From an uncultured archaeon (lineage in GTDB: Archaea > Thermoproteota > EX4484-205 > JAAOZP01), in assembly GCA_938045545.1 (NCBI GenBank), contig CALIBN010000006.1, positions 32,001 through 96,000 on the forward strand: a DNA stretch of 64,000 nt. Direction: 5' to 3'. Of the stretch, positions 32,224-64,000 are shown piece by piece. The position numbers and the translations under genes were made by a program. The stretch's first letter is position 1; each line of letters starts with the position of its first letter. The notes under the pieces were generated by a model. It had not been told where the DNA came from. It ran no database searches and saw nothing but the letters and a program-made list of their open reading frames with translations.

Positions 32224-32319
32224 GTATTCGTCGCACGCCTGGAGCAAGACTGCTGAACAGTTTTGAAACAAGCATAGAATTTTTAAGCTTTTAACAATAC
32301 GGGGAGAGACAATCGAAGC

Positions 32320-47964: not shown

Positions 47965-49109
47965 CCGTAGAGAAGAACCCTTCTGACCCTAGCTTTAAAC
48001 CTTTTCTGCTCGTCTCTCAGTCTCAAAACAATCTCTTCGACGCTAACGCCGTTTAAGATGTTTCTCCTGACCTTGCTGTCGCCGAGCAGCCTATCCATCT
48101 TCCCGTGTTCAACTTCTAACTCCCTCGGGTGAACCTCTAGCACAGTTTGAAGGATGTTGACCCCAACCTGGAAAGGCTTAATCTTCCTCTGGTCTTCCAC
48201 CACAAGGTGGATCCCTCTGCAAACCTTTCCCTCGTGTTTGGAAGAGGAAGGGATGAACCTGGTCTCCATGAGGAGGCAATCTTTACCCAGCTTACGTCTC
48301 AACACGGGGGCGACCTCCGCTGATTTAAACCATGGAGCACCGAAGACTTCAAAAGGCTTGTATGTTCCCCTGCCTTCAGAAAGGTTTGTAGCCTCCAGAA
48401 GAACCATCCCGGAATAGAGTAGCGCGGCAACCGGCGTCGGTATTGCGGGCGAAGGATAAACCCAGGGCAGGCCCGTGTCGCAGAAGTACATCATCCTGCT
48501 CCATCCTGAAAGCCTCACCACCAAGGGGGGTTTCAAGCCCTTTTCGAAAGCATAGAGGAGAGCCAGCTCGCCGGGAGTCATGCCGTATCTAAGGGGAACG
48601 TAATACGGTCCAACGAAGGATTCAAGCCCCTTTTTTAAAACAGGGCCCTCCACGGTGAGACCACCCAGTGGGTTAGGCCTGTCGAGAATCATGAAGCCGA
48701 CGCTGTTCTTCGACGCCTCCTCTAAACAGTTTAGCATCGTGGATATGTAAGTGTATGTTCTGCATCCAACGTCTTGAATATCGTAGATCAGCAGGTCTAG
48801 CTCCTTAAGCGTCTCGACACTGGGCTTTCTCCGCGTGCCGTATAGGCTTTGAACACTAACCCCGTTTAAAGAAAGTTTTTCAGACTCCACTGGCTCACCG
48901 GCACCGTAGGCTCCCCAAAGCCCGTGTTCAGGAGTAAAGATGGTTTTAACACGTATCCCTTTTTCTAAGAGCCGTATGTAAGACGGGTCTAATCTTCTCG
49001 TCACCGAAGTATGGTTTACGATAAGCCCTATGTTTAGACGGGAAAGCCTTTCAAGCAGTTTTCTCCTCTCGAGAAGGACGTCCAGCCCCGGCTTAACCCT
49101 GCTTGCCAA
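47961..49109 (-). CDS. namZ: Exo-beta-N-acetylmuramidase NamZ (DUF1343/YbbC); no signal peptide
   Basis: NHTS, PEHG, SLYG, DIQDVGCRTYTYISTM, LDRPNP, GMTPGELA, PSP, SEGRGT, FGAPW. Confidence 0.9.
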   Translation of the reverse strand: MASRVKPGLDVLLERRKLLERLSRLNIGLIVNHTSVTRRLDPSYIRLLEKGIRVKTIFTPEHGLWGAYGAGEPVESEKLSLNGVSVQSLYGTRRKPSVETLKELDLLIYDIQDVGCRTYTYISTMLNCLEEASKNSVGFMILDRPNPLGGLTVEGPVLKKGLESFVGPYYVPLRYGMTPGELALLYAFEKGLKPPLVVRLSGWSRMMYFCDTGLPWVYPSPAIPTPVAALLYSGMVLLEATNLSEGRGTYKPFEVFGAPWFKSAEVAPVLRRKLGKDCLLMETRFIPSSSKHEGKVCRGIHLVVEDQRKIKPFQVGVNILQTVLEVHPRELEVEHGKMDRLLGDSKVRRNILNGVSVEEIVLRLRDEQKRFKARVRRVLLYG

Positions 49110-49110
49110 A

Positions 49111-49824
49111 CTACTCGCCCAGGAGGCTTTTCCTCCTTATCCTCTTAACACCCCAGTCTCCGAAGGTCATGAACGCTTCAGCGTATTGGAAACCGACTTC
49201 AAGCCCTCTGATCCTTTTTAAGCAGGAATAGTAATCAACGTAGTTGAACCCGCTGTACTTTCCAGATGTAAAATCGTAAGTCTTAATCACATCCAAATAT
49301 TTTTCGAAAACACTGCCGACGTCAACGTACACCTCCGGCTGGAAGCCCTGCGGGTCCTCCCAGTTCTCAGGATAGTAAAGCTCAACCGACCTACTGTGCC
49401 TCCCCTCCGCCCTCTGCTCTCCCGTGAAGCTTTCGAAAGCCTGTATGGCTAGAAGGTGGCACGCAAGATGATCAGGATGATAGCTTCCCTTCCAGTGAAT
49501 CAGAACCGCGTCAGGCATGAACTCTGAAAGAGCCTTATACATTTTCTGCTTAACCTCCTCCGCATCGTAGGGAACGCCCTCCACGCAACCCAGGAAACCC
49601 ACTTCAGCATCCAGCTTCCTAGACGCTTCTAAAGCCTGCTTAACCCTTGTTTCAGCATACTCCTCAGCAGATAACCCTGGCGGACGAGCCCATTTTCCAG
49701 AAGGCTTAAACATGTGGAGTATTAGACATCTTCCCCCCTCCTCAGCGTTTCTCAGAATCGACCCGCCCGCTGTGATTTCAACATCCCCAGTGTGGGCGCT
49801 AAACGCTAGTATTTTAATGCCCAA
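49111..49824 (-). CDS. PIG-L/LmbE family N-deacetylase
   Basis: AHTGDVEI, HWKGSYHPDH, ENWED, YAEAF. Confidence 0.8.
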   Translation of the reverse strand: MGIKILAFSAHTGDVEITAGGSILRNAEEGGRCLILHMFKPSGKWARPPGLSAEEYAETRVKQALEASRKLDAEVGFLGCVEGVPYDAEEVKQKMYKALSEFMPDAVLIHWKGSYHPDHLACHLLAIQAFESFTGEQRAEGRHSRSVELYYPENWEDPQGFQPEVYVDVGSVFEKYLDVIKTYDFTSGKYSGFNYVDYYSCLKRIRGLEVGFQYAEAFMTFGDWGVKRIRRKSLLGE

Positions 49825-49830
49825 CGTTGG

Positions 49831-50751
49831 TCACCCTCTTTCAATACTCTTGGTGAAAACCGCGAACCTACGGGCTTCAGACATGCCGTTCCTCACGTAG
49901 AAACTGTAGTTTCTACCCCCGCCCCAGGCCAACCAAGCATTCTTACCGCCGAGAGACTGGATCAGCCTTAGACACCTGTGGAACAGGACCGTCCCAACCC
50001 CCTTGTTCCTATGCTCCTCAGCAACCCCGAAAGGGCCGAAATGCTCTATCAGCCCGTCGGTAGCTATTTGACAATAGCCAACTATCTCCCCGCCGTGGAA
50101 AGCAAGAGTAAACCAGTCGAGACACCTAGGATATTTCTCCATCGTCCTCCTAGCGTCCTCGTACCACCATGGGAACCTGGCTTTAAGGAAGAGAAGAAGC
50201 TCCAACACGTGTTCATCGTCAAGCTGCCGGAATAAGTAGCCTTCTCCAGAAAGCCTTCTCTCAAGTTCTAAAACCTCTCTTGGTGTCGCGTATCCCATAA
50301 GCGACATGCTCATTGAAACCGATTCCCTGCTTGACTCACTGTAGCCGTTCTTGGTGAAGAAGCCTATCGCCCCCGGGTAAGCCTTAACGTCAACCCCTGG
50401 AACAAGGTATCTCGGCCCGCCTGAGAAGACTACTCTCTTAACCCCTTTCCCTCTGAGTTTTTCCTCAACCGTTGCAAGCATTCTCGACCCGACGCCCATG
50501 CCTCTAAACCCGTTTTTCACAGCAAGTATGTTTATGTATCCTGTTTCACCCCTTGTTACGGAGTAGATGAAGCCGACCACCCTGCCCTCGGACTCTGACA
50601 CGATGCAGAGATCAGGATCATAATTCTCCTGCAGGAGAACCCTGTACCTGAAGGACTCCTCGTTAAGCCTGTCGAGAGGCATCGCGTCATTGATGATTTC
50701 TAGAACAGGCCTGAGATCCCGGCCTTTAAAACTTCTTTCCTCCAGGTTCAA
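49831..50751 (-). CDS. Tandem GNAT N-acetyltransferase (GlmA-like)
   Basis: Two acetyl-CoA motifs FRGMGVG and HRNKGVG; YLVPGVD; HFGPFGV. Confidence 0.8.
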   Translation of the reverse strand: MNLEERSFKGRDLRPVLEIINDAMPLDRLNEESFRYRVLLQENYDPDLCIVSESEGRVVGFIYSVTRGETGYINILAVKNGFRGMGVGSRMLATVEEKLRGKGVKRVVFSGGPRYLVPGVDVKAYPGAIGFFTKNGYSESSRESVSMSMSLMGYATPREVLELERRLSGEGYLFRQLDDEHVLELLLFLKARFPWWYEDARRTMEKYPRCLDWFTLAFHGGEIVGYCQIATDGLIEHFGPFGVAEEHRNKGVGTVLFHRCLRLIQSLGGKNAWLAWGGGRNYSFYVRNGMSEARRFAVFTKSIERG

Positions 50752-50835
50752 CGAAAATCTGTTTGAACTGCTACATATAAGTGTTTTTCAAACCCAAGGT
50801 TTATCACCCACCGGGTTAACGTATAACGGCTTAAC

Positions 50836-51831
50836 ATGGTTTCAAGACTGGAGAGGATAGACGCGGAGTTTGAAAAACTGTTGACGGAGCATAGAAACCC
50901 TAGGACGGTTAGGATAGACAGGGTTGAGGTGGTTGAGGCCTTGAAGATGATAAACAGGGAGGACAAGAAGGTGGCTAGGGCTGTTGAACTAGAGATACCG
51001 AGGATCGCCAGGGCTGTTGAAAGCGTCGTCAAAGCCTTTAAGAAAGGCGGTAGGCTGATTTACGTTGGCGCCGGCACGAGCGGCAGGATAGGAGTCATAG
51101 ACGCGGCCGAGTGTCCACCTACCTTCGGCACAAGCCCAAGCATGGTTCAGGCTCTGATAGCGGGTGGAAGAAGAGCCATGTTCAGGGCTGTTGAAGGGGC
51201 TGAGGACAACATGAAGGCCGGGGTTAACGATATCAAGCGTCTTAAGGTTTCCGAGAGGGATGTCGTCATAGGGCTGAGCGCCTCGGGCAGGGCACCCTAC
51301 GTGGCAGGGGCTCTTAAGGAGGCTAGGCGAAGAGGTGCTGAAACCATTGCCGTCGCAACAGTGCCTAACCCTAAGATCGGGGTCTACGCCAACATACTGA
51401 TAACGCCAATAGTTGGTCCAGAAGCGATAGCGGGGTCTACTAGGATGAAGGCGGGTACTGCTGAGAAGATGGTGCTAAACATGATTTCAACAGTCTCGAT
51501 GGTCAGGATTGGAAAGGTGTATACGAACCTGATGATAGACATTAAGCCTTTAAGCGTGAAGCTTAGGTCACGGGCTAGGAGGCTGCTACGCTTTTTCGCA
51601 GGAGTCTCAAGCGAAGAGGCAGAGGAAATATACAGGGAGAGCAGGTATGATTTGAAGGTTGCTCTAGTCATGGCTTTAGCGAGGGTTGAGGCAGGCCAGG
51701 CAAGAAAAGCTTTGAGGAAAAGCCAGGGCCTAGTCTGGAGGGCTATAAGGCTGATTCAGGAAGAAAGCACGAGACCCAGGTTTAAAACTCGAAAACAACA
51801 ACGTCGTAAACCATCAGGCTGTCCAGAGTGA
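50836..51831 (+). CDS. murQ: N-acetylmuramic acid 6-phosphate etherase
   Basis: TEHRNP, GAGTSGRIG..DAAECPPTFG, VEGAED, GSTRMKAGTA.KMVLN, GKVY.NLM.D. Confidence 0.93.
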   Translation: MVSRLERIDAEFEKLLTEHRNPRTVRIDRVEVVEALKMINREDKKVARAVELEIPRIARAVESVVKAFKKGGRLIYVGAGTSGRIGVIDAAECPPTFGTSPSMVQALIAGGRRAMFRAVEGAEDNMKAGVNDIKRLKVSERDVVIGLSASGRAPYVAGALKEARRRGAETIAVATVPNPKIGVYANILITPIVGPEAIAGSTRMKAGTAEKMVLNMISTVSMVRIGKVYTNLMIDIKPLSVKLRSRARRLLRFFAGVSSEEAEEIYRESRYDLKVALVMALARVEAGQARKALRKSQGLVWRAIRLIQEESTRPRFKTRKQQRRKPSGCPE

Positions 51832-53968
51832 ATTCAAAACAGTCGGGGAGCTCCCGGACGGGGAGCATGCCTCTATCGCTAAGCTTAAACACCCTCCTGG
51901 GCCGGCTACCCCTGATTCTGACTTTAATATTGTGCACACTGGTTATGCTTGAAATAGGCCTCTGCATGTCTCCAGTAGTATTAACAAGGTGGACAAGAAT
52001 TCTGCCCGTGCTTCTCTGCTCCCTGACTTCGAACAGCACCGTCTCGGGAGCGTCAACCTCCACGACAGGAGGCTTACGCATCGCAAACCTAATGCAGCCG
52101 GCATAAACCTGCGAGATATCCGGCATCCTGTACCTGGAGTAGAAGTCTTCAATAAGCGAGGAGAAGTAGATCGTCCTGCTCTCGCCGTGGCTACTGCAGA
52201 TGATTGCAGCATAGTTCGAAACCCCTCTGGGAGCCGCGTAGTAGGCGCCTATCGGATTCATGAAAAAGCATATCGCCTCAGCATCCCGCCTGCTGAAAGC
52301 CTTAAGGCTATACACTGGTCTAGGGATTAACGCGCCAACAGGCATTGAGAAGATTTTCTTTTCAGGCTCTGCAAGCTTCATGTATTCCTCCCCGACCCTG
52401 GGAAGCATCATGCCGTCGCATCTTTCTACGCCTAGAATACTCCAGAGCGGGTTTTCAAGCCTATGGTCCCCATACTCGTCATAACAACCGGTTTCAAAGG
52501 AGCAGACCAAGCTTCCACCCTTTCCAATGAAGCTTCTAACGCTGCGGATCTGTTCATCGCTCAAGCAGGCAGAGTTTGGAAGAATAAGCAGAGAGTATTT
52601 TTCAAGCTCGCCTTTGGCAAGAGCGTCATCCAGAATCACGTCGTACGGAATATGGCTTCGGCTTAAAATGGTTGCAGCGCCCAGTATAGAGTTAGTGTAG
52701 ATCTCGTCGCATATTTCCTTTCTCGCCTTAAGGTCTGTTTTCCTCCTGCCAGTACTCCCCTCTATCCTAAGGTCCCTCTCAACACCAGTCCCCGGATCCA
52801 AGTATAGTTCCCTGAGCTCAGACAAGTAGAACGTGGATGTTTGCGTTGAGACCAGCAGGGCTACTTCAGCCTTCGAGACAGTGTCAGCATAGTATTCTTC
52901 GTTTCTCGACAGGAAGCCGAGAATGTTTCTCATAGGGGTTAAGGCATCCTCCAGCCTAGTGTCTAAAGCGTAGTCGAATACTGCGAACCAAGGGTTTGCA
53001 CCGCAGGAAACGGTTTGCGCAACCGAGACCTCAGCCTCGAAACGTGGCAGGGGAACGTAGTGCCAGCTGCCCAGCGCGTGATGGCTGAAGACAACCGCCG
53101 GCTTACCTTTGGCGGCGAGGTGCTTAGCCTCAAGCGTCCAGAAGATTAGAGGCACGTTTTGAGAACCAGGATGGAAGAACGCCTCTGCGCCGTTAAAATC
53201 CTCGTATTCGCTTAGCTTTTCAATGTTGCGGGCAACCCTCCAGCTGCCGGGCCACCAGGCCCCACCGTTAAGAAATATTACACCCTCCTCGTTAACCCTC
53301 TTAACAGCTTGACGAGCATCCCTGAGAAACTCAACCATAGACTCTTCTCTGAACTCTATGAATCTCTTCCAGAGAGGGTTCGACCAGTCTTCCCAGCTGG
53401 GAGGCTCGCTGCCATGCTTTTCCGAAAACTTTTCCCGGCATGACTTGCAGTAGCAGCACCCTGGGAAAACAACCGGCCCATCCAGGAAAACACCGTCAAT
53501 CCCTGTTTTCATAGCCTCCTCTATGAGTTCGAAAGCCCAGTTTCTCCACCCTGTGTTCACGCAGAAAGTCGTCCCGGATCCATATAGGGGATGCACGCTA
53601 CCATAGCTTCTACCGTCTTCTATGCGTTGCTCCCAATCAGCATGCCTACGTCCAAACTCATACGAATACCAGTGCATGTTCAAGTATGCTAAGACCCTGA
53701 TCCCATGCTTCCTGGCATGAGGCAAGTATTCCCTCACCAGGTCGAAATCACCCAGCCCAGGATACTTTTCGAACTTCGGCGTGTTGAAAGTGGTTAAGTA
53801 GCCCAGCCCCGGGGCTGTCCCCGGCGTACCTATCACCCATTCGCAGTTAATATTCCACTCCTCCTTCTTCCACCCGGCCAGCTTATCCATGTCTGATTCA
53901 GCCATCCTGCCCAGAGCATCCAAGTAGTCGAGCCTCATCATCCTAACGGGTTTCCGCCACCACTCCAA
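51782..53968 (-). CDS. Uncharacterised glycoside hydrolase (GHL6/GH42-like TIM barrel plus trimerisation-type domain)
   Basis: ARKHGIRVLAY, IDGVFLDG, CYCKSCREKF, IPYDVI, LILPNSACLSDEQ. Confidence 0.7.
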   Translation of the reverse strand: MEWWRKPVRMMRLDYLDALGRMAESDMDKLAGWKKEEWNINCEWVIGTPGTAPGLGYLTTFNTPKFEKYPGLGDFDLVREYLPHARKHGIRVLAYLNMHWYSYEFGRRHADWEQRIEDGRSYGSVHPLYGSGTTFCVNTGWRNWAFELIEEAMKTGIDGVFLDGPVVFPGCCYCKSCREKFSEKHGSEPPSWEDWSNPLWKRFIEFREESMVEFLRDARQAVKRVNEEGVIFLNGGAWWPGSWRVARNIEKLSEYEDFNGAEAFFHPGSQNVPLIFWTLEAKHLAAKGKPAVVFSHHALGSWHYVPLPRFEAEVSVAQTVSCGANPWFAVFDYALDTRLEDALTPMRNILGFLSRNEEYYADTVSKAEVALLVSTQTSTFYLSELRELYLDPGTGVERDLRIEGSTGRRKTDLKARKEICDEIYTNSILGAATILSRSHIPYDVILDDALAKGELEKYSLLILPNSACLSDEQIRSVRSFIGKGGSLVCSFETGCYDEYGDHRLENPLWSILGVERCDGMMLPRVGEEYMKLAEPEKKIFSMPVGALIPRPVYSLKAFSRRDAEAICFFMNPIGAYYAAPRGVSNYAAIICSSHGESRTIYFSSLIEDFYSRYRMPDISQVYAGCIRFAMRKPPVVEVDAPETVLFEVREQRSTGRILVHLVNTTGDMQRPISSITSVHNIKVRIRGSRPRRVFKLSDRGMLPVRELPDCFEFTLDSLMVYDVVVFEF

Positions 53969-54280
53969 GCCTATCGCCGTTTATGCGACGAGATGTTGAA
54001 AAGCTATTTTAAAACATTTATGCCTCATGCAAACCACAGTCATGAAGCTTAGAGCACTACCATCTCGTGATGCGGCAAGTTAAACAGAGAATTGTCTGCA
54101 ATACTCCCGCATCTCTTCAGAAAGCTTCAAGCGATTCATCTACTTGCTGACGCAACAATGGAGACGGTTTCTCCAGCATTGCGATGAGCCCATTTCCGGA
54201 TTTAAAGTATTTTTACCTAGTTTAAGTTTATAGCTTGGAACTAATACAGTAGACTAGTTAGAAAGCACGGAGGAAAAATA

Positions 54281-55399
54281 TTGGTCGAAGATGCAACGAG
54301 GGAACAGAAGGTACACGGTGTACAAATGTCGATTATAATCCCCACTTACATGGAAGCAGAAACCCTTTCTAAGCTTGTAGAAAGAGTAGAGAAGACTTTG
54401 GTGGAAACAGATTTCGAGATCATCATTGTCGACGATAATAGTCCCGATGGGACAGCTGACATCGCTGAGGGGCTTGGCATGAAGTTTGGAAATATCAGGG
54501 TGATAAGAAGGCCTGGAAAGCTGGGGTTGGGCTCTGCAGTGATGGATGGACTAAAGTTGGCGAGATCACAGCTGATCGCTGTTATGGACGCCGATTTGCA
54601 GCATCCTCCGGAAGTCCTAAAACATATGTTGGAGGAGTTAGGAAAAGGTTGTGATGTTGTCATCGCCTCAAGGTATGTTAAGGGTGGTGGAGCCCAGGGC
54701 CTCAGCGTGTGGAGGCGATTTATATCTAAAGGAGCCACCGTCCTTGCGCACGTTTCCCTGCCGAAGACGAGCCGCGTTTCAGACCCGCTATCTGGATATT
54801 TCGCGCTCAACAAGAAAGTGATTCATGGAATTAAGCTGAACCCGATCGGTTACAAGATCCTGCTCGAAATCCTTGTGAAAGGAAAATACGGAAGGGTCTG
54901 CGAAATACCTTACAACCTTCAGCATAGGGCTGGGGGTAGAAGTAAACTCGGTTTACGCGAGATTTTGCTTTATTTGAAACACTTATACTCATTGACAAAG
55001 GAGGCAAGCGAACATAGGAGGCTTATAAACTTCGTGCTGGTTGGGTTGGCGGGAATCCTAGTTAATGAGACCATCTTATGGTTTTTGACTGAACACTTAT
55101 ATCTGCATTATGTGTTTTCCGCTTCGATCAGCGCAGAAGTATCTGTTTTATCAAACTTCGCTCTGAACGAGGTTTTCACGTTCAGGGACCTGGTAGCAGA
55201 TTCCTCTTTAAGATCGGTGTTTAGAAGAGTCTTTGAATACAACTGGACAAGAATAGTGGGGATATGCATAGAGCTGTTCACATTGCATGTTTTAACCATT
55301 TTCGCGGGACTACACTATCTTCTTGCAAACCTTGTGGGTATTGCTTTAAGCTTGGCTTGGGGTTATTCAACCAGCATCTCAATTGTATGGAAGAGTTAG
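54281..55399 (+). CDS. GT2 dolichol-phosphate mannose synthase-like glycosyltransferase fused to a GtrA-like domain
   Basis: SIIIPTY.E, VDDNSPDGT, MDADLQHPP, ASRY, DPLSGYF; C-terminal FVLVGLAGILVNE..SNFALNE.FTF. Confidence 0.88.
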   Translation: MVEDATREQKVHGVQMSIIIPTYMEAETLSKLVERVEKTLVETDFEIIIVDDNSPDGTADIAEGLGMKFGNIRVIRRPGKLGLGSAVMDGLKLARSQLIAVMDADLQHPPEVLKHMLEELGKGCDVVIASRYVKGGGAQGLSVWRRFISKGATVLAHVSLPKTSRVSDPLSGYFALNKKVIHGIKLNPIGYKILLEILVKGKYGRVCEIPYNLQHRAGGRSKLGLREILLYLKHLYSLTKEASEHRRLINFVLVGLAGILVNETILWFLTEHLYLHYVFSASISAEVSVLSNFALNEVFTFRDLVADSSLRSVFRRVFEYNWTRIVGICIELFTLHVLTIFAGLHYLLANLVGIALSLAWGYSTSISIVWKS

Positions 55400-55561
55400 G
55401 CCATGCCAGTTATTCTTTGAGTAAGCTAGGGTGTTTTTTGAAGATGTTGAACACGAGTCTCATATTCCGAGATACTGGGTTGAGAGCAGTATTGAGCGTT
55501 AATCCAGTTCGATTAATTCCGAGCTGGTAGCGTTGCCGTAATGCTTTTAAACTTTGGCTTC

Positions 55562-55583
55562 TTATCAATAATTTGCCTGATAA
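55562..55583. promoter_or_regulatory. Inverted repeat TTATCA-N10-TGATAA; possible operator
   Basis: Lies between CTTTTAAA (about 55544) and ATG 55593. Confidence 0.3.
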
Positions 55584-55592
55584 TAAGCTAAG

Positions 55593-57887
55593 ATGAGCAT
55601 GCCTTTGAAAGCCGCACATTCGTGTTTGAAAACATTTACACTCATCCTTATTGTCGTCTTGCTTGCACTCAGCCTTCTCTCGATTCCTCTAGGCATTAGC
55701 ATAATCTTAGTTGAAGGCCTCTCGAATGCAGCCTCGAAAATCCAAACATCGTGGTACTTTTACTTCGCATTAGCTGAGATTATTTATTCTTTATGCTTCG
55801 TTTTTGCTTTCAGGTCGAGAGAAAGCCTCAGAAAATCTATACGTAAATTTCTTAACGAGCCCATTGCATTTCCAAGCGATAATTTCTTGCTACTTATGCC
55901 TGTTATCACGTGCTTAACCCATATGGCCCTGAGCCTTATCGAATCGATCCAAAAACATCTACAGATATCAACAGGCCTCCCACCCCTAAGCTCGGACCCG
56001 ATATCGGCCTACTTTGAATCAGCCTGGTCCCCCATACTTGAAGAGATTGTGTTTAGAATGCTCTTGCTGGGTTTTTTCTACTCTTTCTACCTGAACAGAG
56101 GCATCGGCACCCTTTCAGTTCGCAAAAAGCTCAATGTTTCTCTGCTTTCATTCTTAAGCCCGGAAAGCGCGAAGAGGCTTTTAAGATCATGGGGCTCATC
56201 CATATCTTTTAAAATCGAAAATGACGAATGGATGATCATCATTTTCTCCTCTGCCCTCTTTGCTTTTTCCCACTACGCGGTGCCAAACGCTTGGGGTATT
56301 GGAAAACTTACCTTAGCGTTCATACAAGGATTTACTATGGCGCTGTCATACGTCTTTTATGGTATCTATGCTTCCCTACTAATTCACTGGTACTTCAATT
56401 ACTATCTGTACACCAATAGACTAATTGCAGTTTTACTTCCAAACCTGTCATTTCTAAGCGTGTTCAGCGAAGTAGTATCCATGGTCTTGACAGTACTAAC
56501 CTTAACCCTGTTGGTGCTTTTGAACATTAGAAGCATGATCAAGACAGTTTCGTCTACCTGCAAGAAATATCGGCCGAGCCTCATAATGCTAGTCCCTAGA
56601 GCCTGCGTGACAATAAAGAAAAGAATGCTGGCTTTAAATGTTGTTAAAAAAGCAATCCCTGAGCTGGCTTTGCTAGCTGTAGTTGTCCTCACGTTAATCT
56701 TAAGGCTGTCCATTCTCGAATATCCGAAGCGTGAAACCTACGGAGGGATAGTAAGCTGGGACTTTATATTTGATGAGAAGTATTACGTTAGTGCAGCTAG
56801 AGACATGTTGGCAGACAAGGCAACGAACAATGAACATCCACCTCTAGTGAAGGTTTTCATTGCTTTGGGCATAATGTTCTTGGGAGATAACCCGGCAGGT
56901 TGGCGTGTCTTCACAATCTCAGCTGCAACGGCTTCAGTATTATTGGTGTACGCACTTTCTTTGCTTCTCAATGGTAGTAGAGAGGTTTCTCTTTGCTCAG
57001 CGATACTCTTTGCCTTAGACATAATGGTGTTCAACATAGGACAGATCGCCATTCTAGATGCTCCAGCAATAACGTTTATGCTTGCTGCAAGCGTATTATT
57101 TTTGAAGAAGAGGCATGATCTTGGCGGGTTTTTTCTAGGCTTAGCCTCATTGTGTAAGCTTACTTCCGTGTTTTTATATTTAGGCATCACAGCCTTTCTA
57201 GTTCTATCTGAGGTAAAGTCGTTCCGAAAGACTATAGAATCCTGTTTAAGGATTGGCGTCACAGCCCTTGTTGTCTTCTTAGCCGGATTATGGGTCTACG
57301 ACTCATTATATTCCGCCTTCGCTAAAAACCCTCTAAGTCACATTAGCTACATGCTAACATACCACAGCAGCCTGAAATATCAGGATTCGAAAGAAGTAAT
57401 TCTTCCATTACAATGGATAAATCCACTCGACCCGTTCACCCCCATGCCGTTCTACGTTATAACGACTATGGAAACAGTGGGAGGAACCCTTAAAGTATAC
57501 CATCCTGTTGCCTATTACGGTATCTACAGCCCTCTATGGTGGAGCATATGGATAGTCATGTCTCTAAGCCTATTCTACATCTTAAGAGAAGCAAGAAATA
57601 GAAGTTTTGAGAGAACCCGGCTTTTCATCCTTACTTGGATCCTTGCGAACTTCTTGCCTTATGTTTTTCTAGCATACCTAATGTCTAGATGGGTTTACCC
57701 ATTTTACTTCTACTTGACATTGCCGGCGCTATATATCGGTCTATCCAGCTACTTGAATAGATGCAAGTATTCAAAACTAGTTATGGCTTCCACTGTAATT
57801 TTGCAAGCTTTTTGGTTCGTCTTATGGTTTCCGGTTAAACCAAAGCTTCTTATTGATATCTTAGCATCTTTGGGATTGCCAGTTTAA
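55593..57887 (+). CDS. CPBP intramembrane protease fused to a PMT/GT-C (GT39-like) protein glycosyltransferase
   Basis: N-terminal half: PILEEIVFR, LFAFSH, IHWYFN. C-terminal half: FDEKYY, EHPPLVK, GDNPAGWR, AILD, LCKLTS, RWVYPFYF. Confidence 0.8.
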   Translation: MSMPLKAAHSCLKTFTLILIVVLLALSLLSIPLGISIILVEGLSNAASKIQTSWYFYFALAEIIYSLCFVFAFRSRESLRKSIRKFLNEPIAFPSDNFLLLMPVITCLTHMALSLIESIQKHLQISTGLPPLSSDPISAYFESAWSPILEEIVFRMLLLGFFYSFYLNRGIGTLSVRKKLNVSLLSFLSPESAKRLLRSWGSSISFKIENDEWMIIIFSSALFAFSHYAVPNAWGIGKLTLAFIQGFTMALSYVFYGIYASLLIHWYFNYYLYTNRLIAVLLPNLSFLSVFSEVVSMVLTVLTLTLLVLLNIRSMIKTVSSTCKKYRPSLIMLVPRACVTIKKRMLALNVVKKAIPELALLAVVVLTLILRLSILEYPKRETYGGIVSWDFIFDEKYYVSAARDMLADKATNNEHPPLVKVFIALGIMFLGDNPAGWRVFTISAATASVLLVYALSLLLNGSREVSLCSAILFALDIMVFNIGQIAILDAPAITFMLAASVLFLKKRHDLGGFFLGLASLCKLTSVFLYLGITAFLVLSEVKSFRKTIESCLRIGVTALVVFLAGLWVYDSLYSAFAKNPLSHISYMLTYHSSLKYQDSKEVILPLQWINPLDPFTPMPFYVITTMETVGGTLKVYHPVAYYGIYSPLWWSIWIVMSLSLFYILREARNRSFERTRLFILTWILANFLPYVFLAYLMSRWVYPFYFYLTLPALYIGLSSYLNRCKYSKLVMASTVILQAFWFVLWFPVKPKLLIDILASLGLPV

Positions 57888-58090
57888 AGAAACCGATCTC
57901 GACTCGACTCCCACTCGTATTGAAAGAAGACGGTGCAAAATATGACGAGGCAGATGAGAATTTTAAAAATCATGGTGTCTGTTTAGACATATTATGGTCA
58001 AGATTAATAACAAAACTTTTTTGCATCACCTAGCAATCTCATATAAGGTGGTACTTAATTTTTATTGAAAAAGATAACAGGGTATTATAG

Positions 58091-60016
58091 TTACTTCTTT
58101 CTGGATGCCACGAGCCAGCCGATTGCAACGCCTATTATAAGCGCTACTATGCCAATGCCCCCGGCACTAACCACATCGAAACCTGGTGCTCCGGCAACTG
58201 TAGTAGTAACAGTGATTGTTACAGTTACAGCAGTAGGCGGCGACTTCGGCTGTATCCTAGCTAGTACGAAGAAGAACGTAGGCCACCAGTTGTAAGGCAC
58301 TATGTACATATTGTCTTGAGAAGGCCAGCCAACCCAGTATTTGGTTGAGAAAGTCTGTACGAACGTCTTCTCAACCGCGGGAACAGTTATGCAGTCCCTC
58401 TGCACTATGTAAAAGGCTTCTTCCAGTAACGAGGCGGTACGCGGATGGTCTAATGGTATTGTCCAAAGCTCATCTATTATGGCATCTAGCTCCGGGTTTC
58501 TGTACCTTGGATTAGCACCCTGGATACCGGGAGAGTTGGAAGTACTACCGATAGGAGCGTACCATTTGCTGTGAAATACGTCTAGGGTTGACACAGGGTC
58601 ACCCATGATCCATCCCGGGGTGCAGTGAGTACATATCCTTATGTCGTATTGGCCAAGCGCTGAGAGATCACCCAGCAGCGCACCTCCTATTTTAGTAGTG
58701 GCGTCTATTCCGACTGCCTTTAGTTCCTCCACTAGGTCATAACCTATGTAGTGGGCAGCGTCTTCACCCAGCAGAAGCTCTACAGTGAACTTTGTCCCGT
58801 TAGGCAGCTCTCTAAACCCGTCTTTATCTATGTCCCGGAACCCTAGGGAGTCCAATATTTGTTTCGCCTTTTCAGGGTCGTATTTCAATTCGAAACCAAG
58901 TTCATTCTTGATTCTTTCTAGCCCCCTGTTAATCATGGGTTTATACGGATCGAAAACAGCCCAAGAGTATGGCATCGGAAGAAGCCAATCTGTCGTCGGA
59001 GTGCCATTCGATAACGCATAAGCCCTAGCTAAGGCAGGACGGTTCACTAAATAAGCTATGGCCCATCTGAACTCCCTTATGCTAAACGGATACTTGGCCA
59101 CGTTAAACGAGTTAATCCCATAGGGACATGGGTCGGTATATGGAGCTATAACAATATCAATTGTCCTCCTCATAGCAGTACTGATCATCTCCCAAGTAAA
59201 TATGTGGGGAAGCACGACATCGACATCACCCCTAACGAAGTCCTCAAGATCCACGTCGGCTGCAGGAATGCCACGCCATATCACGTATTTGGGAGTTGGG
59301 AAAACCCCCATATTTTTACCCCAGTAATCATCTCTCCTCTCCCATATGAACATCGGTATTTCTGGATAAACTGCATAAAGCTTGTAGGGGCCCGTGTCTA
59401 CGGGTGGCCAATTCGCAAAGGTTTTCGGATCAACATTCTTCCATATGTGCTCCGGGACTATGGGGAAATAGCTCCACATCCTGAATGTATGATGGAACCT
59501 TGGGTTAGGCTTCTTCAAGTGTACAACCAGTGTATAGTCGTCAGGCATTTCAACCGATTCAACCCATTCGTTAACATAACTTGAACCTCCAAAGTCAGGA
59601 TTCTGTTTCAGCATGTTCATAGTGAATGCAATATCTCTTGCAGTATATGGATGGCCGTCATTCCAAGTAACACCCCTCCTGATGTACAGGGTAAAGGTTC
59701 TGTAATCATCGCTATATTTCCACCCAGTTACTCTCCAGTATATGATTTCGCCAGTAGCATAGTTAATGTACCAGTCCCATTCTTGTGCTATTTGGTGCCA
59801 TCCAGAACCCCACTGCGAACCTTGAGGTATGAAGGGATTCGCTTTGTCAAATACCGTGAAGTAAGGTGAAAGCATTATCTCGGTAATTACTGTTTGATCC
59901 CGGGGGACAGGCAGAGCCGGTTGAGCCTTAACTGGCATTGCTAAGGGCATCAAGAAGGCAAATACAATTATTGATATGAAAATCGATTTAGCCATCCTTT
60001 TTAACAACATTTTCAC
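58091..60016 (-). CDS. ABC substrate-binding protein family 5 (peptide/oligosaccharide) with Thr-rich linker and C-terminal TM anchor
   Basis: Signal peptide; RRGVTWNDGHPYTARDI.FT, TGPYKL, YDPEKAKQILD, YWVGWP; TAVTVTITVTTTV-APGF-TM-RKK. Confidence 0.9.
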   Translation of the reverse strand: MKMLLKRMAKSIFISIIVFAFLMPLAMPVKAQPALPVPRDQTVITEIMLSPYFTVFDKANPFIPQGSQWGSGWHQIAQEWDWYINYATGEIIYWRVTGWKYSDDYRTFTLYIRRGVTWNDGHPYTARDIAFTMNMLKQNPDFGGSSYVNEWVESVEMPDDYTLVVHLKKPNPRFHHTFRMWSYFPIVPEHIWKNVDPKTFANWPPVDTGPYKLYAVYPEIPMFIWERRDDYWGKNMGVFPTPKYVIWRGIPAADVDLEDFVRGDVDVVLPHIFTWEMISTAMRRTIDIVIAPYTDPCPYGINSFNVAKYPFSIREFRWAIAYLVNRPALARAYALSNGTPTTDWLLPMPYSWAVFDPYKPMINRGLERIKNELGFELKYDPEKAKQILDSLGFRDIDKDGFRELPNGTKFTVELLLGEDAAHYIGYDLVEELKAVGIDATTKIGGALLGDLSALGQYDIRICTHCTPGWIMGDPVSTLDVFHSKWYAPIGSTSNSPGIQGANPRYRNPELDAIIDELWTIPLDHPRTASLLEEAFYIVQRDCITVPAVEKTFVQTFSTKYWVGWPSQDNMYIVPYNWWPTFFFVLARIQPKSPPTAVTVTITVTTTVAGAPGFDVVSAGGIGIVALIIGVAIGWLVASRKK

Positions 60017-60132
60017 TCAAAGCATTATTAATTCAGGTACATATAAATCTTATGGTTAAAAAAGTAAACTCGACGGCCGGCGACAGAAAGCTTTTTATTT
60101 TAGATCTTTATCTTTCAAAGAAGGTAGAGTGA

Positions 60133-61152
60133 ATGACTAGTAAAAAACGCATTCTGCGCTATATGACGAAGCGTGTAATCGTCTACGTGATCACGTTATT
60201 CATATCATTCTCAATCGTGTTCTTATTCCTACGTTTGATACCGGGAGACCCTATAACACGATACTTGAGAATGCTTGAGCAGAGATACTCTTATTCAATG
60301 GAAATGCTGGATATTGTGGTAAAATGGAAGGCTGAGCTTGGTCTAGAAGGAGATCTATTTACACAATACTCGCGTTATATACAAAATTTATTCTTACGTT
60401 TAGATTTGGGCCCATCATTCGTGGCTTTCCCAACTCCGGTTCAGGATCTCATACTGACGAGGCTGCCGTGGACGATAGCACTCCTAGGAGTGGCAACTTT
60501 AATTTCTTGGAGTATCGGTACTTTAGCAGGGGTAATATTAGGTTGGAAGAGAGGCACTAAATTTGACTCCACGCTTTTTACAATAGCTCTCTGTATGTCT
60601 CAAGTACCATATTATATCGCCGCAATTTTTTTAGTTCTACTTTTAGCCTATGTTTTCCCTGTTTTTCCATCCAGATATGCTTTTTCACCTGGAGTTCAAA
60701 TAAAGCTCAGTCTCGACTTTATATCAAGTGTTTTATACCATTCTTTTCTTCCCGCATTATCCATAGTACTAACTTCTGCTTTTGGTTGGCTAATTTCCGC
60801 AAGGTTCCTTACCATTAGTATAATAGGTGAGGATTATCTTCTCTTTGCCCAAGCCAAAGGTCTAAAGGCAAACAGAGTCTTAAATAGGTACATTCTAAGA
60901 AATGCCTTATTACCGCAAGCCACAGGACTCGCCATGTCACTGGGCTTCATAGTAAATGGTGCTTACTTAGTGGAGTGGGTGTTTTCTTACCCAGGCATAG
61001 GAGGACTATTACAGTATGCTATAAATCTTGTTGACTATAATACTATCCAAGGAATCATATTGATGTCAATCTTTACTGTTCTCACAGCCAACCTTATAAT
61101 GGATCTGATTTACCCGTTGATAGACCCAAGAATAAGGTCTGGTGAGAGATGA
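60133..61152 (+). CDS. Opp/Dpp ABC permease, B subunit
   Basis: RLIPGDP, DLGPS, RLPWT, EDY..FAQAKGL, RNALLP, IDPRIR. Confidence 0.92.
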   Translation: MTSKKRILRYMTKRVIVYVITLFISFSIVFLFLRLIPGDPITRYLRMLEQRYSYSMEMLDIVVKWKAELGLEGDLFTQYSRYIQNLFLRLDLGPSFVAFPTPVQDLILTRLPWTIALLGVATLISWSIGTLAGVILGWKRGTKFDSTLFTIALCMSQVPYYIAAIFLVLLLAYVFPVFPSRYAFSPGVQIKLSLDFISSVLYHSFLPALSIVLTSAFGWLISARFLTISIIGEDYLLFAQAKGLKANRVLNRYILRNALLPQATGLAMSLGFIVNGAYLVEWVFSYPGIGGLLQYAINLVDYNTIQGIILMSIFTVLTANLIMDLIYPLIDPRIRSGER

Positions 61153-62042
61153 TGAATACTCTTAAGTTAAAAAAAGGATTAAAAAGCGCAGCATCATTTT
61201 TTGCGAGATCGACTGCCTTTAGAGTGGGAATTATCATGCTTAGTCTGATCCTGCTTCTAGCTTTATTAGAACCAGTCATAAACGGATACATTCTTAAAGG
61301 AAAAGGTCCTCTCAAGACCGGGGTTTTTGACAAATATTTACCTCCTTCTTTAGAGCATCCGTTAGGAACAGACCACTATGGAAGGGATGTGCTTGCTCTC
61401 TTACTAGCTAGCCTTAAGTATTCTTTGCTAATAGGAGCCTTCGCAGGATTGATCGCCACTTTGATCGGAACCACGATAGCTAGTTTATCCGGCTATTTTG
61501 GTGGCAAGGTTGACCTTATATTAAACAGTGTCACAAACGGGATGCTGGTTATTCCAAGTTTTCCGATTCTGATAGCTATTGCTGCGTATATACGACTCGA
61601 TCTTATTACAATGTGCTTGGTCCTAGCGATATTCAGCTGGGCTTGGTCTGCACGCTTGGTAAGAGCCCAGATTTTAAGCATGAAGGAAAGACCCTATATA
61701 GAACTAGCTAAAGTCTCTGGCTTCCACAGTTTCGAAATAATGTTTCTAGAAATACTGCCGAACATGGCTCCCTTTATAATTATGGGTTTAATAAATAGCA
61801 TAATGGGTGCGATGTTTGCTGAAACCGGATTAAGGGTTCTGGGTTTAGGGCCTGGTGAAATACCGTCTCTCGGCCTTATGATAAGCTGGGCACTTACTTT
61901 CGGAGCTATCTCCATAGGGCGTTATAACTTATTAGTAGCTCCGGCAGGGGCTCTCGTCCTGGTTTTCATATCGTTAAACTTAATTAACATAGGTCTGGAG
62001 GAAATATTTAATCCAAGGCTTAAAAAAATTACAGGGCTTTAG
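61149..62042 (+). CDS. Opp/Dpp ABC permease, C subunit
   Basis: HPLGTDHYGRD, ARLVRAQ, EILPN, FNPRL. Confidence 0.92.
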   Translation: MMNTLKLKKGLKSAASFFARSTAFRVGIIMLSLILLLALLEPVINGYILKGKGPLKTGVFDKYLPPSLEHPLGTDHYGRDVLALLLASLKYSLLIGAFAGLIATLIGTTIASLSGYFGGKVDLILNSVTNGMLVIPSFPILIAIAAYIRLDLITMCLVLAIFSWAWSARLVRAQILSMKERPYIELAKVSGFHSFEIMFLEILPNMAPFIIMGLINSIMGAMFAETGLRVLGLGPGEIPSLGLMISWALTFGAISIGRYNLLVAPAGALVLVFISLNLINIGLEEIFNPRLKKITGL

Positions 62043-62049
62043 AAAATGG

Positions 62050-63054
62050 TTATTTAACATAGAGAAAGCACAGGACCCTTCTACCTGGCTCCACCTCTAT
62101 CATAGGGGGCCTTTCTTTTTTACACACGTCCATAGCGTAGGGACATCTTGGCCAGAATATGCAGCCCTTCTCTACCCTAGCCTGCTCCGAGAGGGAAGTC
62201 GCTTCTGCCAACTGCATCCGATCTTTCCATCTAGCCTTCGGGCTGGGAGCAGGTATTGAGGATAGTAAGAGCTTTGTATATGGATGCAATGGTTCATTTA
62301 TAATTTCGTTGGTACTACCCTCCTCAACAACATTGCCTTGACACAATACGATTAAACTATCTGCCACGCAGTTAGCTATATCCAGGTCATGAGTTATGTA
62401 TAAGCATGAGGCCCCTATCTTATCTTTTAATACGCGTAACTGATCTAGGAATATCGCTCTTAAAGAAGCATCTATCATGGAGACAGGTTCATCCGCCACT
62501 ATGAGTCTAGGTTTTATTAGAAGTATCCTGGCTAGCATTAGCCTTTGTCTTTCTCCTCCACTCAGTTGATGAGGATATCTTCCTAATATATCTTCAGGCC
62601 TGAGCCCCATGTCTTTCATAGCAGAAATAATCATATCTTCGATAGCTTTACCGTCGTTAACTATTTTCAACTTTTTTAAGGGCGCTTTGAGTATTCGCTC
62701 GACTCTATAGAAAGGATTATAGATGCTGTAAGGGTCTTGAAAAATGGGTTGAACCTCTTTTAAATAAGCTAACTTATTTTTTCTGAGCCACTCCGATACA
62801 GACTTTCCTTTATATAATACCTTTCCATAAGTAGGCTCTAGCAACCCCAAGATCAGTCTGGCTATTGTAGTTTTTCCACTGCCACTTTCACCTATAAGAC
62901 CTATAGATACAGGCTTCTCAGAAGGCACTGAAAATGAAACGGAAACTAATGCTTTAATAGTCGATCTACCTACTATTCCTAAACCACCGCCTACCCTATA
63001 TTCATGCGTGACATCCTTCAATTCAAGAAGCGGTTCACTCTTCATTTTAATCAC
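62050..63054 (-). CDS. Opp/Dpp ABC ATPase (OppF-like)
   Basis: GESGSGKTT, YPHQLSGGERQR, ADEPVS, HPYTKLL, GCIFWPRCP. Confidence 0.93.
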   Translation of the reverse strand: MIKMKSEPLLELKDVTHEYRVGGGLGIVGRSTIKALVSVSFSVPSEKPVSIGLIGESGSGKTTIARLILGLLEPTYGKVLYKGKSVSEWLRKNKLAYLKEVQPIFQDPYSIYNPFYRVERILKAPLKKLKIVNDGKAIEDMIISAMKDMGLRPEDILGRYPHQLSGGERQRLMLARILLIKPRLIVADEPVSMIDASLRAIFLDQLRVLKDKIGASCLYITHDLDIANCVADSLIVLCQGNVVEEGSTNEIINEPLHPYTKLLLSSIPAPSPKARWKDRMQLAEATSLSEQARVEKGCIFWPRCPYAMDVCKKERPPMIEVEPGRRVLCFLYVK

Positions 63055-64000
63055 CGTAAAGATGACATGCTACAAATCTACCTTGTTGAATTGATTTAAC
63101 AGGAGGTTCGATTTCCCTACAGATATTCATGACAAAGGGGCATCTCGGATGGAACCGACAGCCTTTAGGCCAATCCAAGGGGCTTGGTGCCAACCCAGGT
63201 ATACCCTTGATTATTTTCTTTTCAAGTGACGGCACGGCCGCTATCAGTCCTTTACTGTAGGGATGTAAAGGGTCCTCAAATAGTTCGTAGACAGGACTGA
63301 CTTCTACAACTTTCCCCGCATACATTACGGCCACCCTATCACCAACCTGCGCGTGAGCAGCCATGCTGTGAGATACTAAAACGATAGACATGCCGTACTT
63401 ATCCTTGAGGGTCCTTAAAAGCTGCAGGATTCCCTTCTGAACAACTACATCCAAAGCAGTGGTTGGTTCATCGGCTATAATTAGAGTAGGCTTCAAAGCT
63501 ATGGCCATCGCTATTATGACTCTCTGTTTCATACCACCACTAAGCTCGTGAGGATACATTTCAGCCACCTTGGTAGATAGGCCCACTTCCTGAAGCAACT
63601 GCATTATAAGTTGCATAGCCTCTTTCTTTTTCATATCAGAATGATCTAGTATAGCATCCATCATCTGTTCTTTGACTTTTAAGAAGGGGTTCAAAGAATT
63701 CATAGCACCTTGCGGAACGTAAGCTAACTTAGTCCACCTAATTCTGTTTAATTCTTTCTCAGGAAGTTTCAATAAATCTACTCCTTCAAATATGACTTTA
63801 CCGCTGGGAATGTAGCCCGGAGTTTTAACTAGTCTAAGCATTCCATCTACGAGGGTTGATTTACCACATCCCGATTCTCCAGCTATGCTGAAAACTTCAT
63901 CGCGAACCACTTCTAAAGACACCCCGTCAACAGATTTATAGTCGCCATATATGCTTCTATAATATATTTTTAAATCCTTGACTTCCAGTATTTTATCCAA
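63047..64000 (-). CDS. Opp/Dpp ABC ATPase (OppD-like); start at the window edge
   Basis: GESGCGKST, YPHELSGGMKQR, ADEPTTALD, GCRFHPRCP. Confidence 0.93.
   Translation of the reverse strand: MDKILEVKDLKIYYRSIYGDYKSVDGVSLEVVRDEVFSIAGESGCGKSTLVDGMLRLVKTPGYIPSGKVIFEGVDLLKLPEKELNRIRWTKLAYVPQGAMNSLNPFLKVKEQMMDAILDHSDMKKKEAMQLIMQLLQEVGLSTKVAEMYPHELSGGMKQRVIIAMAIALKPTLIIADEPTTALDVVVQKGILQLLRTLKDKYGMSIVLVSHSMAAHAQVGDRVAVMYAGKVVEVSPVYELFEDPLHPYSKGLIAAVPSLEKKIIKGIPGLAPSPLDWPKGCRFHPRCPFVMNICREIEPPVKSIQQGRFVACHLYGD

Follow-up and report, generated by a model that had tools for sequence, protein, structure and literature searches.

The 64,000-nucleotide stretch analysed here (the window; part of contig CALIBN010000006.1 in the uncultured archaeon assembly GCA_938045545.1) encodes a 764-amino acid (aa) protein that joins an N-terminal CPBP/Rce1-like domain to a C-terminal glycosyltransferase domain of the GT-C type, related to the PMT and PMT_2 families. 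This one-polypeptide architecture, which an earlier note had read from the open reading frame (ORF), is confirmed. The gene is followed by a convergent gene for an ABC transporter substrate-binding protein (SBP), and the conserved tail formed by the last 60 residues of this SBP is probably the partner of the fusion. The locus is tentatively interpreted as a dedicated surface-protein maturation cassette, in which the GT-C half would O-glycosylate the stalk of the SBP and an outward-facing CPBP half would recognize and cleave its tail. The coordinates of all features are listed in Table 1.

Table 1. Features of the fusion locus, in window coordinates. A1 and A2 are the alignments described in the text; TM, transmembrane helix.
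Feature	Position	Strand	Basis or remark
CPBP–GT-C fusion ORF, 764 aa	55593..57887	+	stop codon included; both halves by motif and profile
CPBP/Rce1-like half, residues 1–320	55593..56552	+	PF02517, motifs, relatives, model
CPBP motif 1, EExxxR (E150, E151, R155; EEIVFR 150–155)	56040..56057	+	invariant in 31/31 rows of A2
CPBP motif 2, FxxxH (F223, H227; FAFSH 223–227)	56259..56273	+	invariant in A2
CPBP motif 3, HxxxN (H265, N269; HWYFN 265–269)	56385..56399	+	A2: H265 invariant, N269 at least 90%
Basic linker, residues 321–356	56553..56660	+	predicted cytoplasmic
GT-C half, PMT/PMT_2 (GT39-like), residues 357–764	56661..57884	+	Pfam, PDB profile, fold
DE motif (D394, E395), first loop after GT-C TM1	56772..56777	+	invariant in 12/12 rows of A1; aligns with Pmt1 FDE
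NNEHPPL motif, residues 412–418	56826..56846	+	invariant in A1
GT2 + GtrA/DPMS-TM protein, 372 aa	54281..55399	+	Pfam Glycos_transf_2 E 4e-35, GtrA_DPMS_TM E 3e-18
SBP_bac_5 (oligopeptide/nickel class) ABC substrate-binding protein, 641 aa	58091..60016	-	Pfam SBP_bac_5 E 1.5e-52; NCBIfam Opp4A-like
SBP tail, C-terminal 60 aa	58094..58273	-	Thr-rich stalk, P-x-x-D, Gly-rich TM ending GW, SRKK
Two ABC permease genes, same transporter as SBP	60133..62042	+	ORF translations
Two ABC ATPase genes; second starts at the window's last bases	62050..64000	-	Walker motifs in translations

The 764 codons of the fusion ORF are free of stops, and the opposite strand is full of them. Every motif named in the earlier note is in place (EExxxR, FxxxH, HxxxN, DE and HPPL, the last as part of NNEHPPL, at residues 150–155, 223–227, 265–269, 394–395 and 412–418, respectively), and the basic linker that it described between the halves contains nine Lys and Arg residues and no Asp or Glu. 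The window genome is metagenome-assembled (51 contigs, 92% complete). The possibility that two neighbouring genes were merged through an error in sequencing the linker is negligible, since 25 distinct intact fused ORFs are found in different assemblies and two further contigs carry the same arrangement. The first was built separately from run X1, possibly the sample from which the window genome derives, and is identical to the window over 54207–60100. The second is an 18.6-kb contig of another study (X2), in which the genes for a GT2 protein, the fusion and the SBP are collinear with the window. Both halves are also spanned by nine database proteins exhibiting 39–82% identity to the fusion, and fused forms are found at 3 of the 80 genome loci that contain a relative of the N-terminal half and at 19 of the 79 metagenome loci that contain a relative of the entire protein. 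Across the 25 fused ORFs, which come from independent assemblies, the frame is kept and EExxxR, HxxxN and NNEHPPL are each present in all 25; a regular expression picked up FxxxH, spaced as expected, in 23 of them. An assembly or gene-calling artefact is thus effectively excluded on sequence data by independent fused ORFs and contigs, and the fusion is virtually certain to be genuine. Its relatives are not always encoded by two genes, as the fused forms constitute a clade of intact ORFs, and the motif conservation together with this single fused clade indicates that the fusion is under selection.

The earlier note did not know this fusion as a characterised architecture, and no paper describing it was found in the openly accessible literature. 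A search for CPBP–glycosyltransferase fusions identified nothing relevant in print, subscription-only papers and domain-architecture databases lying outside its reach. The words "glycosyltransferase" and "fusion" each have zero occurrences in the accessible part of a preprint on CPBP sorting enzymes (10.1101/2023.06.07.544157). Among the ESM Atlas clusters of at least 50 members, none joins the CPBP and PMT families, and the closest of these large clusters consist of stand-alone PMT/PMT_2 proteins with approximately 390–440 aa.

The CPBP half is identified by PF02517 in a whole-genome scan (29.8 bits against a cut-off of 22.4, window 56019–56402). A plain hmmscan of the fusion protein against Pfam gave no match in this half, and hmmscan detects PF02517 in 1 of the 12 members of alignment A1 (12 rows). 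The domain is missed because the subfamily carries an insert of approximately 45 residues between motifs 1 and 2; in the stand-alone members this family-specific insert includes a conserved L-x-P-x-K-A-K segment. A phmmer search with residues 1–335 against 1.84 billion representatives returned 220 relatives (E <= 0.001), mostly stand-alone proteins of 340–365 aa, and PF02517 scores above cut-off in 20 of the 40 that were scanned. Alignment A2, from which the motif conservation in Table 1 is taken, comprises 31 members of this CPBP subfamily. Modelled alone, the N-terminal half consists of eight long helices plus peripheral helices (pLDDT 90, pTM 0.88), and the three motifs sit on the successive helices 136–169, 210–229 and 258–281. 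When this model was compared with 48,161 chains by VIA-align, rank 1 went to the SagB-SpdC complex (6u0o_A), with 134 aligned residues and Z 5.9, and rank 5 to MmRce1 (4cad_C), with 126 aligned residues (model 97–276 on chain 80–238) and Z 4.6. According to the notes of VIA-align itself, Z values of this size fall within noise for helical bundles, and the matches are consistent with a CPBP fold, not proof of one. Foldseek of the same model against the PDB gave no match at E <= 0.001, and a PDB sequence-profile search with A2 returned only a chance match to a designed protein. The sole NCBIfam hint in this half came from the model for MrtJ (NF033192), which matched residues 145–165 only, around EExxxR, with 16.3 bits against a cut-off of 75. 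The window genome encodes four other CPBP proteins besides the fusion. A second long CPBP protein of 835 aa (28971–31478, reverse strand) features a C-terminal Rce1-like domain (PF02517, 88.8 bits) and a many-helix N-terminal region resembling an ABC-2-type permease, and its gene is situated immediately downstream of an ABC ATPase gene (31465–32328, reverse strand), with which it overlaps.

The GT-C half exceeds the Pfam cut-offs for both PMT_2 (PF13231, 42.1 bits against 26.1, residues 415–564) and PMT (PF02366, 24.1 bits against 22.7), and the fusion is the sole PMT_2 match of the window genome. PMT is matched by all 12 members of A1 and PMT_2 by 11 of them. The A1 profile run against the PDB identified yeast Pmt1 only (6p25_A, E 4.5e-8), in an alignment that extends across the FDE and HPPL segments. 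Structure prediction, proposed in the earlier note as a check, gave a full-length model (pLDDT 82.6, pTM 0.59) for which the top Foldseek hit was Pmt4 (9i5k_A, E 1.3e-5, TMt 0.57), followed by AglB, Pmt1 and ArnT. No MIR or PMT_4TMC domain was matched in the fusion by Pfam at E <= 1; PF16192 is present in the more distant relatives P0014–P0016. The NCBIfam protein O-mannosyltransferase equivalog (NF058602) scores 38.7 bits, below its cut-off of 800. The GT-C half is very probably a lipid-phosphate-sugar transferase, and the stalk Thr residues of the SBP may be its acceptor, a proposal that falls slightly short of being evenly balanced.

The linker corresponds to the low-confidence stretch 323–348 of the full-length model, with pLDDT below 50 at 323–338 and 342–348. 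In those other fusions where the script could delimit it, the linker is 21–43 aa long with 6–11 Lys and Arg and 0–4 Asp and Glu. In PMT enzymes, entry of GT-C TM1 from the cytoplasmic side puts the DE loop outside. The linker of the fusion should be cytoplasmic, because it is strongly basic and GT-C TM1 must place the DE loop outside. MmRce1 is described, in the accessible part of PMC5874806, as having eight TM helices with both termini lumenal and a cavity whose opening is on the cytosolic side; in the model, as in MmRce1, one helix follows the HxxxN helix. With the C-terminus of the CPBP half in the cytoplasm, homology to MmRce1 would turn the CPBP cavity outward, to the face on which the GT-C DE loop and, in the SBP tail, the P-x-x-D boundary also lie. 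Helix boundaries alone gave an ambiguous active-site depth, and this orientation rests on the published MmRce1 topology. The stand-alone CPBP relatives P0050, P0051 and P0053 carry a C-terminal zinc-ribbon domain, presumably cytoplasmic, which fits a cytoplasmic C-terminus for the CPBP subfamily.

The SBP gene ends 203 bp past the fusion stop. Its product has a signal-peptide-like N-terminus and terminates in a Thr-rich stalk, the sequence A-P-G-F-D, a Gly-rich helix ending in GW, and SRKK. All 12 rows of the tail alignment (A4) agree at P30, D33, S36, G39, G41, A44, L45, G48, G52, W53 and V55, and Cys is absent from all 12 tails. When the 60-aa tail was scanned against NCBIfam (E <= 1), the sole match was a chance one to YneF, and no C-terminal signal model was matched. 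The SBP bodies that bear this tail fall into three groups exhibiting 20–27% identity to one another, while among the tails the median identity, taken over 45 pairs, is 75%; because of this difference the tail behaves as a portable module and not as the slowly evolving end of an orthologue. A profile hidden Markov model (HMM) of the tail, searched against all ORFs of the window genome, identified exactly one carrier, the SBP neighbour. Four SBP_bac_5 paralogues are encoded in this genome, one with the tail, and two of the others end in ordinary hydrophobic TM anchors. A family of sorting signals with many members, served by a general sortase, was rejected, as the 41 candidate C-termini composed of a TM helix plus basic residues, picked out by a crude scan over all ORFs, were varied and contained no second copy of the tail, in agreement with the single HMM match. 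A complex prediction for the full-length fusion (A3) with the 60-aa tail scored 0.00 in both runs, which were made without controls, and counts neither way.

Related arrangements have been described in crenarchaea. Their oligopeptide-binding proteins have a C-terminal TM helix preceded by glycosylated Ser/Thr, according to the accessible parts of PMC3387779 and PMC2797410, and the former portrays crenarchaea as lacking archaeosortases. The exosortase/archaeosortase family (PF09721) likewise has zero matches in the 92% complete window genome.

The tail was found to accompany the fusion across loci and genomes. A tail ORF adjoins a fusion-type locus in 15 loci, namely the window, L003 and 13 metagenome loci, ten of which are fused and three of which have a GT-C ORF cut by the contig end. 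This arrangement recurs beside fusions that are only approximately 40% identical to that of the window. With the tail HMM, no tail ORF was detected in 77 stand-alone CPBP loci or in approximately 48 complete stand-alone GT-C loci. At the level of genomes the tail is present in five of seven that encode the fusion (G000, G021, G028, G003, G134) and in one of 270 that do not (G084). Within the 26 genomes of the window's class, it occurs in G000, G021 and G028, all with the fusion, and is absent from all 21 fusion-less genomes. Two genomes, G026 and G008, encode the fusion with no tail found, and their contigs end at the fusion gene. For the class of G003, sampled with 251 genomes, the full fusion is present only in G003 and G134, both of which have the tail, and more than 90 of the sampled genomes contain stand-alone halves and no tail. 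The tail gene and the fusion of G134 are on different contigs, an instance of co-occurrence without adjacency. Two weak tail matches (E ~1e-4) were discounted due to partial cover (model positions 39–55 and 9–56).

Contig C31 of G021 (L169, L170, L173) encodes two tail-bearing ORFs together with the fusion, one directly downstream of it with an open frame of only 242 aa and the other, of 479 aa, approximately 13 kb away. In L001 (G026:C11) and L002 (G008:C72) the contig stops exactly at the 3' part of the fusion gene or inside it. Repeats in the Thr-coding stalk sequence of the neighbour to be expected there may interrupt assemblies and so hide a partner in these two loci.

These distributions also bear on an improbable alternative modelled on AglS, in which the GT-C half would add hexose from dolichyl-phosphate (Dol-P)-hexose to an existing N-linked glycan or a glycolipid at the outer face. 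The SBP would then be linked to the fusion merely through a shared accessory island of transporter and envelope glycosylation genes, with a separate role for the CPBP half. In Haloferax, AglD (a GT2 enzyme) makes Dol-P-Man and AglS passes it to an Asn-linked tetrasaccharide outside the cell, as given in the accessible part of PMC3871713. The best named NCBIfam match of the GT2 protein encoded upstream of the fusion is AglJ, the cassette is low in GC and patchy, the O-mannosyltransferase equivalog score and the missing MIR and PMT_4TMC domains point the same way, and AglB, ArnT and ALG enzymes are also among the fold matches. Hitch-hiking on an island does not explain why the tail is conserved at approximately 75% over such divergent SBP bodies, nor the co-occurrence on different contigs in G134. 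The best sequence and fold matches, furthermore, are Pmt1 and Pmt4, and a Thr-rich, acceptor-like stalk is encoded right next to the fusion gene.

The maturation cassette proposed at the outset would operate as follows. The upstream GT2-GtrA protein, judging by its family, would make dolichyl-phosphate-hexose on the cytoplasmic face. The SBP would be exported and stay in the membrane through its conserved C-terminal helix, the Thr-rich stalk lying just outside. The CPBP half would recognize this helix within the membrane, as its co-occurrence and conservation suggest, and the GT-C half, with its DE loop outward, would move hexose from Dol-P-hexose to stalk Thr residues as in homologous PMT enzymes. 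Finally, the CPBP half might cut the tail near P-x-x-D, and the glycosylated SBP would be released or re-anchored; this is the least certain step, and cleavage of the tail is possible but somewhat doubtful. Fusing the two enzymes would let a single recognition event serve both reactions. The coupling of the CPBP and GT-C activities is proposed because of the adjacent and co-occurring tail, the chemistry of the two families, the literature on crenarchaeal stalks and the lack of an exosortase match. The earlier note had pictured a single membrane machine coupling the cleavage or anchoring of surface proteins to their O-glycosylation. This idea gains real, if indirect, support from one particular candidate substrate, which is encoded beside the fusion, co-occurs with it and combines a Thr-rich stalk with an anchor conserved at the C-terminus. 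The idea also narrows from surface proteins generally to one partner protein per genome. Taken in all its parts, an archaeal C-terminal maturation system in which an outward CPBP protease fused to a PMT-like GT-C domain reads a Cys-free tail signal, O-glycosylates the stalk and cleaves the anchor would be rather unlikely to hold throughout.

The co-occurrence evidence is fitted equally well by a non-proteolytic role of the CPBP half, which is unlikely. This half would bind the tail helix of the SBP, the polyprenyl tail of the Dol-P-sugar, or both, and thereby place the stalk at the GT-C active site, while the SBP stays anchored by its own helix. The tail resembles a stable, well-packed anchor in its Gly-rich helix, GW and SRKK, and the SpdC complex 6u0o_A is the top structural match of the N-terminal half. 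SpdC, a CPBP protein with eight helices, regulates a glycan-processing enzyme anchored in the membrane; mutants in the putative catalytic residues of SpdC behave like wild type, and it may bind the lipid carrier (accessible part of 10.1101/2020.05.21.109470). A noncatalytic CPBP regulator is also on record in accessible parts of the literature. Against such docking, E150, E151, R155, H227, H265 and N269 are kept across fusions of 39–82% identity and in the stand-alone subfamily, as would be expected of an active enzyme, and a P-x-x-D sequence at the outer helix boundary is more like a processing site than a packing feature.

Several observations besides the SpdC mutants weigh against the proposed recognition, glycosylation and cleavage of the SBP. 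There is one tail-bearing protein per genome, and the tail is free of Cys, in contrast to all CPBP sorting signals hitherto described. In G084 a strong tail match occurs with no fusion detected, the SBP of this genome lying approximately 750 bp from a contig end, and six fused loci (L093, L094, L102 and L108–110, the last three sharing one sequence) have at least 3 kb of downstream sequence with no tail ORF there. The counts above come from genomes that are kin and perhaps represent only three independent lineages, and the tail profile was itself built from neighbours of the fusion. The structural match of the N-terminal half to CPBP structures is weak, the outward orientation of its cavity is deduced by homology and not from coordinates, and the GT-C acceptor could be a glycan or lipid instead of Thr. 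Co-inheritance as one island could mimic a functional link, because the cassette is low in GC and patchy. The stand-alone CPBP proteins (L004–L080), finally, sit in housekeeping neighbourhoods and have no SBP-type partner there.

Most relatives of each half are stand-alone proteins. The stand-alone CPBP proteins (approximately 350 aa) occur almost only in records titled Bathyarchaeia or Bathyarchaeota, and the stand-alone GT-C proteins measure approximately 430–460 aa. No GT-C or Dpm1-like gene was found within up to 8 kb in 77 of the 80 CPBP loci, and a CPBP ORF is absent from all 60 non-fused GT-C loci examined. A conserved CPBP and GT-C gene pair behind the fusion is ruled out by these counts; with halves that are mostly stand-alone and unlinked, the fusion is thus not simply such a pair welded together. 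In a quick IQ-TREE phylogeny of near-full-length, non-identical GT-C halves from fetched loci (the window ORF and the database proteins being left out), the 15 fused rows form one clade with an SH-aLRT of 100, apart from the 44 stand-alone rows. This tree points to a single origin of the fusion, after which both halves appear to have been retained in frame down to 39% identity. The window genome has no member of either subfamily other than the fusion. Among the 26 genomes of the window's class, the full-length fusion is encoded by four genomes of one genus and a fifth fusion, cut at the contig end, by a genome of another family; a match to the N-terminal half is absent from all fusion-less genomes of this class.

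The neighbours of the stand-alone CPBP genes in 77 loci were identified by reading the sequences of cluster representatives, without a family scan. They feature a class-I tRNA synthetase downstream in 41 of 77, an S-adenosylmethionine (SAM)-synthetase-like gene upstream in 27 and a histidyl-tRNA-synthetase (HisRS)-like gene in 26, and they provide no clue to a substrate. Since the stand-alone relatives occupy these housekeeping neighbourhoods, the ancestral CPBP function would be unrelated to glycosylation. The CPBP half might then act on some other target, through self-processing of the linker to release two proteins or through quality control or turnover of the GT-C half, with the fusion being a lineage-specific accident of gene order. 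In its favour, the stand-alone CPBPs are encoded by core genes that neighbour those for tRNA synthetases and SAM synthetase, neither a GT-C nor an SBP gene lies close to them, and the linker is disordered in the model. This explanation is nevertheless quite improbable: the fusion has one origin with both halves retained in frame, the CPBP subfamily is present in the class of G000 in fusion form only, and the linker should be cytoplasmic when the cavity is predicted to open outward.

The gene upstream of the fusion encodes a GT2 protein whose nearest named NCBIfam models are AglJ (best), PgfS and ArnC-like, all far below their cut-offs and all polyprenyl-phosphate glycosyltransferases. A GT2 homologue adjoins the fusion in eight further loci (L001, L002, L003, L087, L089, L090, L091 and L102). 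The protein is likely a polyprenyl(dolichyl)-phosphate hexose synthase and the source of the lipid-linked donor. On the other side, the SBP, two permeases and the ATPases follow the fusion in the same order in L003. The GC content over 54001–64000 of the window is 0.426, compared to a genome mean of 0.480 (sd 0.021) with 0.6% of 10-kb windows as low, subject to the caveat that membrane-protein genes are T-rich anyway. The position of this dip matches that of the cassette, which is made up of the GT2, fusion, SBP and ABC transporter genes. The cassette is patchy within the genus, with the tail in 3 of 17 genomes and the full-length fusion in 4 of 17, and it looks like an accessory, possibly transferred, island.

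Further upstream, the region 47002–53968 contains a cluster resembling genes for the uptake or catabolism of N-acetylmuramic acid and amino sugars. Its members are a BadF/BcrA-type ATPase (sugar-kinase-like), a NamZ exo-beta-N-acetylmuramidase, a PIG-L deacetylase, a double GNAT protein, a SIS-domain protein (MurQ/GKRP-like) and a GHL6/GH42M glycosidase. The first five genes of this cluster are syntenic in L001.

Compared with known systems, the fusion shares with the PMT enzymes of GT39 (yeast Pmt1, Pmt2 and Pmt4, and actinobacterial Pmt) the GT-C type, a DE motif in the first outer loop and HPPL, along with an adjacent gene for a lipid-phosphate-sugar synthase. It differs in its GT-C part of only approximately 410 aa, in which no MIR or PMT_4TMC domain was detected, in its low score against the Pmt equivalog and in being fused to a CPBP domain. 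With MmRce1 (4CAD) it shares the three motifs that hold the catalytic Glu, His, His and Asn residues, the eight long helices of the model and a weak structural match, whereas the insert of approximately 45 residues, the predicted opposite orientation with the C-terminus inside, and the lack of a prenyl-Cys substrate in sight set it apart. CPBP sorting proteases have been proposed in silico, including MrtX, MrtC and MrtP, MrtJ for JDVT-CTERM and the archaeal MrtA for CGP-CTERM (accessible part of 10.1101/2023.06.07.544157). Like these myxosortases, the fusion is a CPBP enzyme paired by co-occurrence and adjacency with a short C-terminal domain composed of a motif, a TM helix and basic residues. 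The tail of the SBP, in contrast, lacks an invariant Cys, there is one target per genome, and the MrtJ score falls far below its cut-off; the same part of that preprint does not describe the enzymes as fused to a glycosyltransferase.

The ArtA/PGF-CTERM system of the haloarchaeal S-layer glycoprotein follows a shared logic of Thr-rich stalk, Pro motif, TM helix, basic end and polytopic enzyme, and the Pro motif of the window SBP tail is literally PGF. The Thr-rich stalk of the haloarchaeal S-layer glycoprotein is O-glycosylated. The sorting role of ArtA and PGF-CTERM is set out in the accessible parts of 10.1101/2023.06.07.544157 and PMC3387779. The locus described here departs from it in that the window genome has no exosortase match, the tail matches no signal model and the candidate enzyme belongs to an unrelated family. 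A different resemblance is to SagB-SpdC of Staphylococcus aureus, where, on the outer face, a CPBP-fold protein cooperates with a carbohydrate-active enzyme anchored in the membrane. In the accessible descriptions of that complex the CPBP protein and its partner are distinct polypeptides, the partner hydrolyses peptidoglycan and the CPBP protein is non-catalytic, whereas the fusion is one polypeptide with a transferase as partner domain and strictly kept catalytic residues. If the CPBP half only docks its partner, the fusion would amount to a natural analogue of SagB-SpdC, with the same principle built into a single chain. The pairing of a GT2 polyprenyl-phosphate-sugar synthase with a GT-C enzyme acting outside the membrane is found in Haloferax AglD, AglR and AglS and in the Pgf system of Streptococcus mutans, which acts on Thr-rich adhesin repeats, as far as the accessible literature on these systems goes. 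They contain no protease domain, and their named models score far below cut-off for the window GT2.

Both families, the GT2 and GT-C logic of AglD/AglS and Pgf, and in silico CPBP sorting proteases are therefore known already. New are the single-chain architecture, the Cys-free tail that matches no curated signal model and the pairing of one enzyme with one target, as well as the implied coupling of intramembrane recognition to glycosylation on the outer face. We know of no enzyme identified as O-glycosylating archaeal surface proteins. The glycosylated Ser/Thr stalks of crenarchaeal binding proteins are described with no enzyme named in the accessible parts of PMC2797410 and PMC3387779. The locus offers a testable trio of a donor synthase, a protease-fused transferase and a single acceptor with a 60-residue target region, and it extends the idea of CPBP sorting or partner recognition to a Cys-free signal. 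It shows a way to couple substrate recognition in the membrane physically to modification outside. If the proposal is true, the locus would provide the first candidate enzyme–substrate pair for archaeal protein O-glycosylation and the first sorting protease coupled to a glycosyltransferase.

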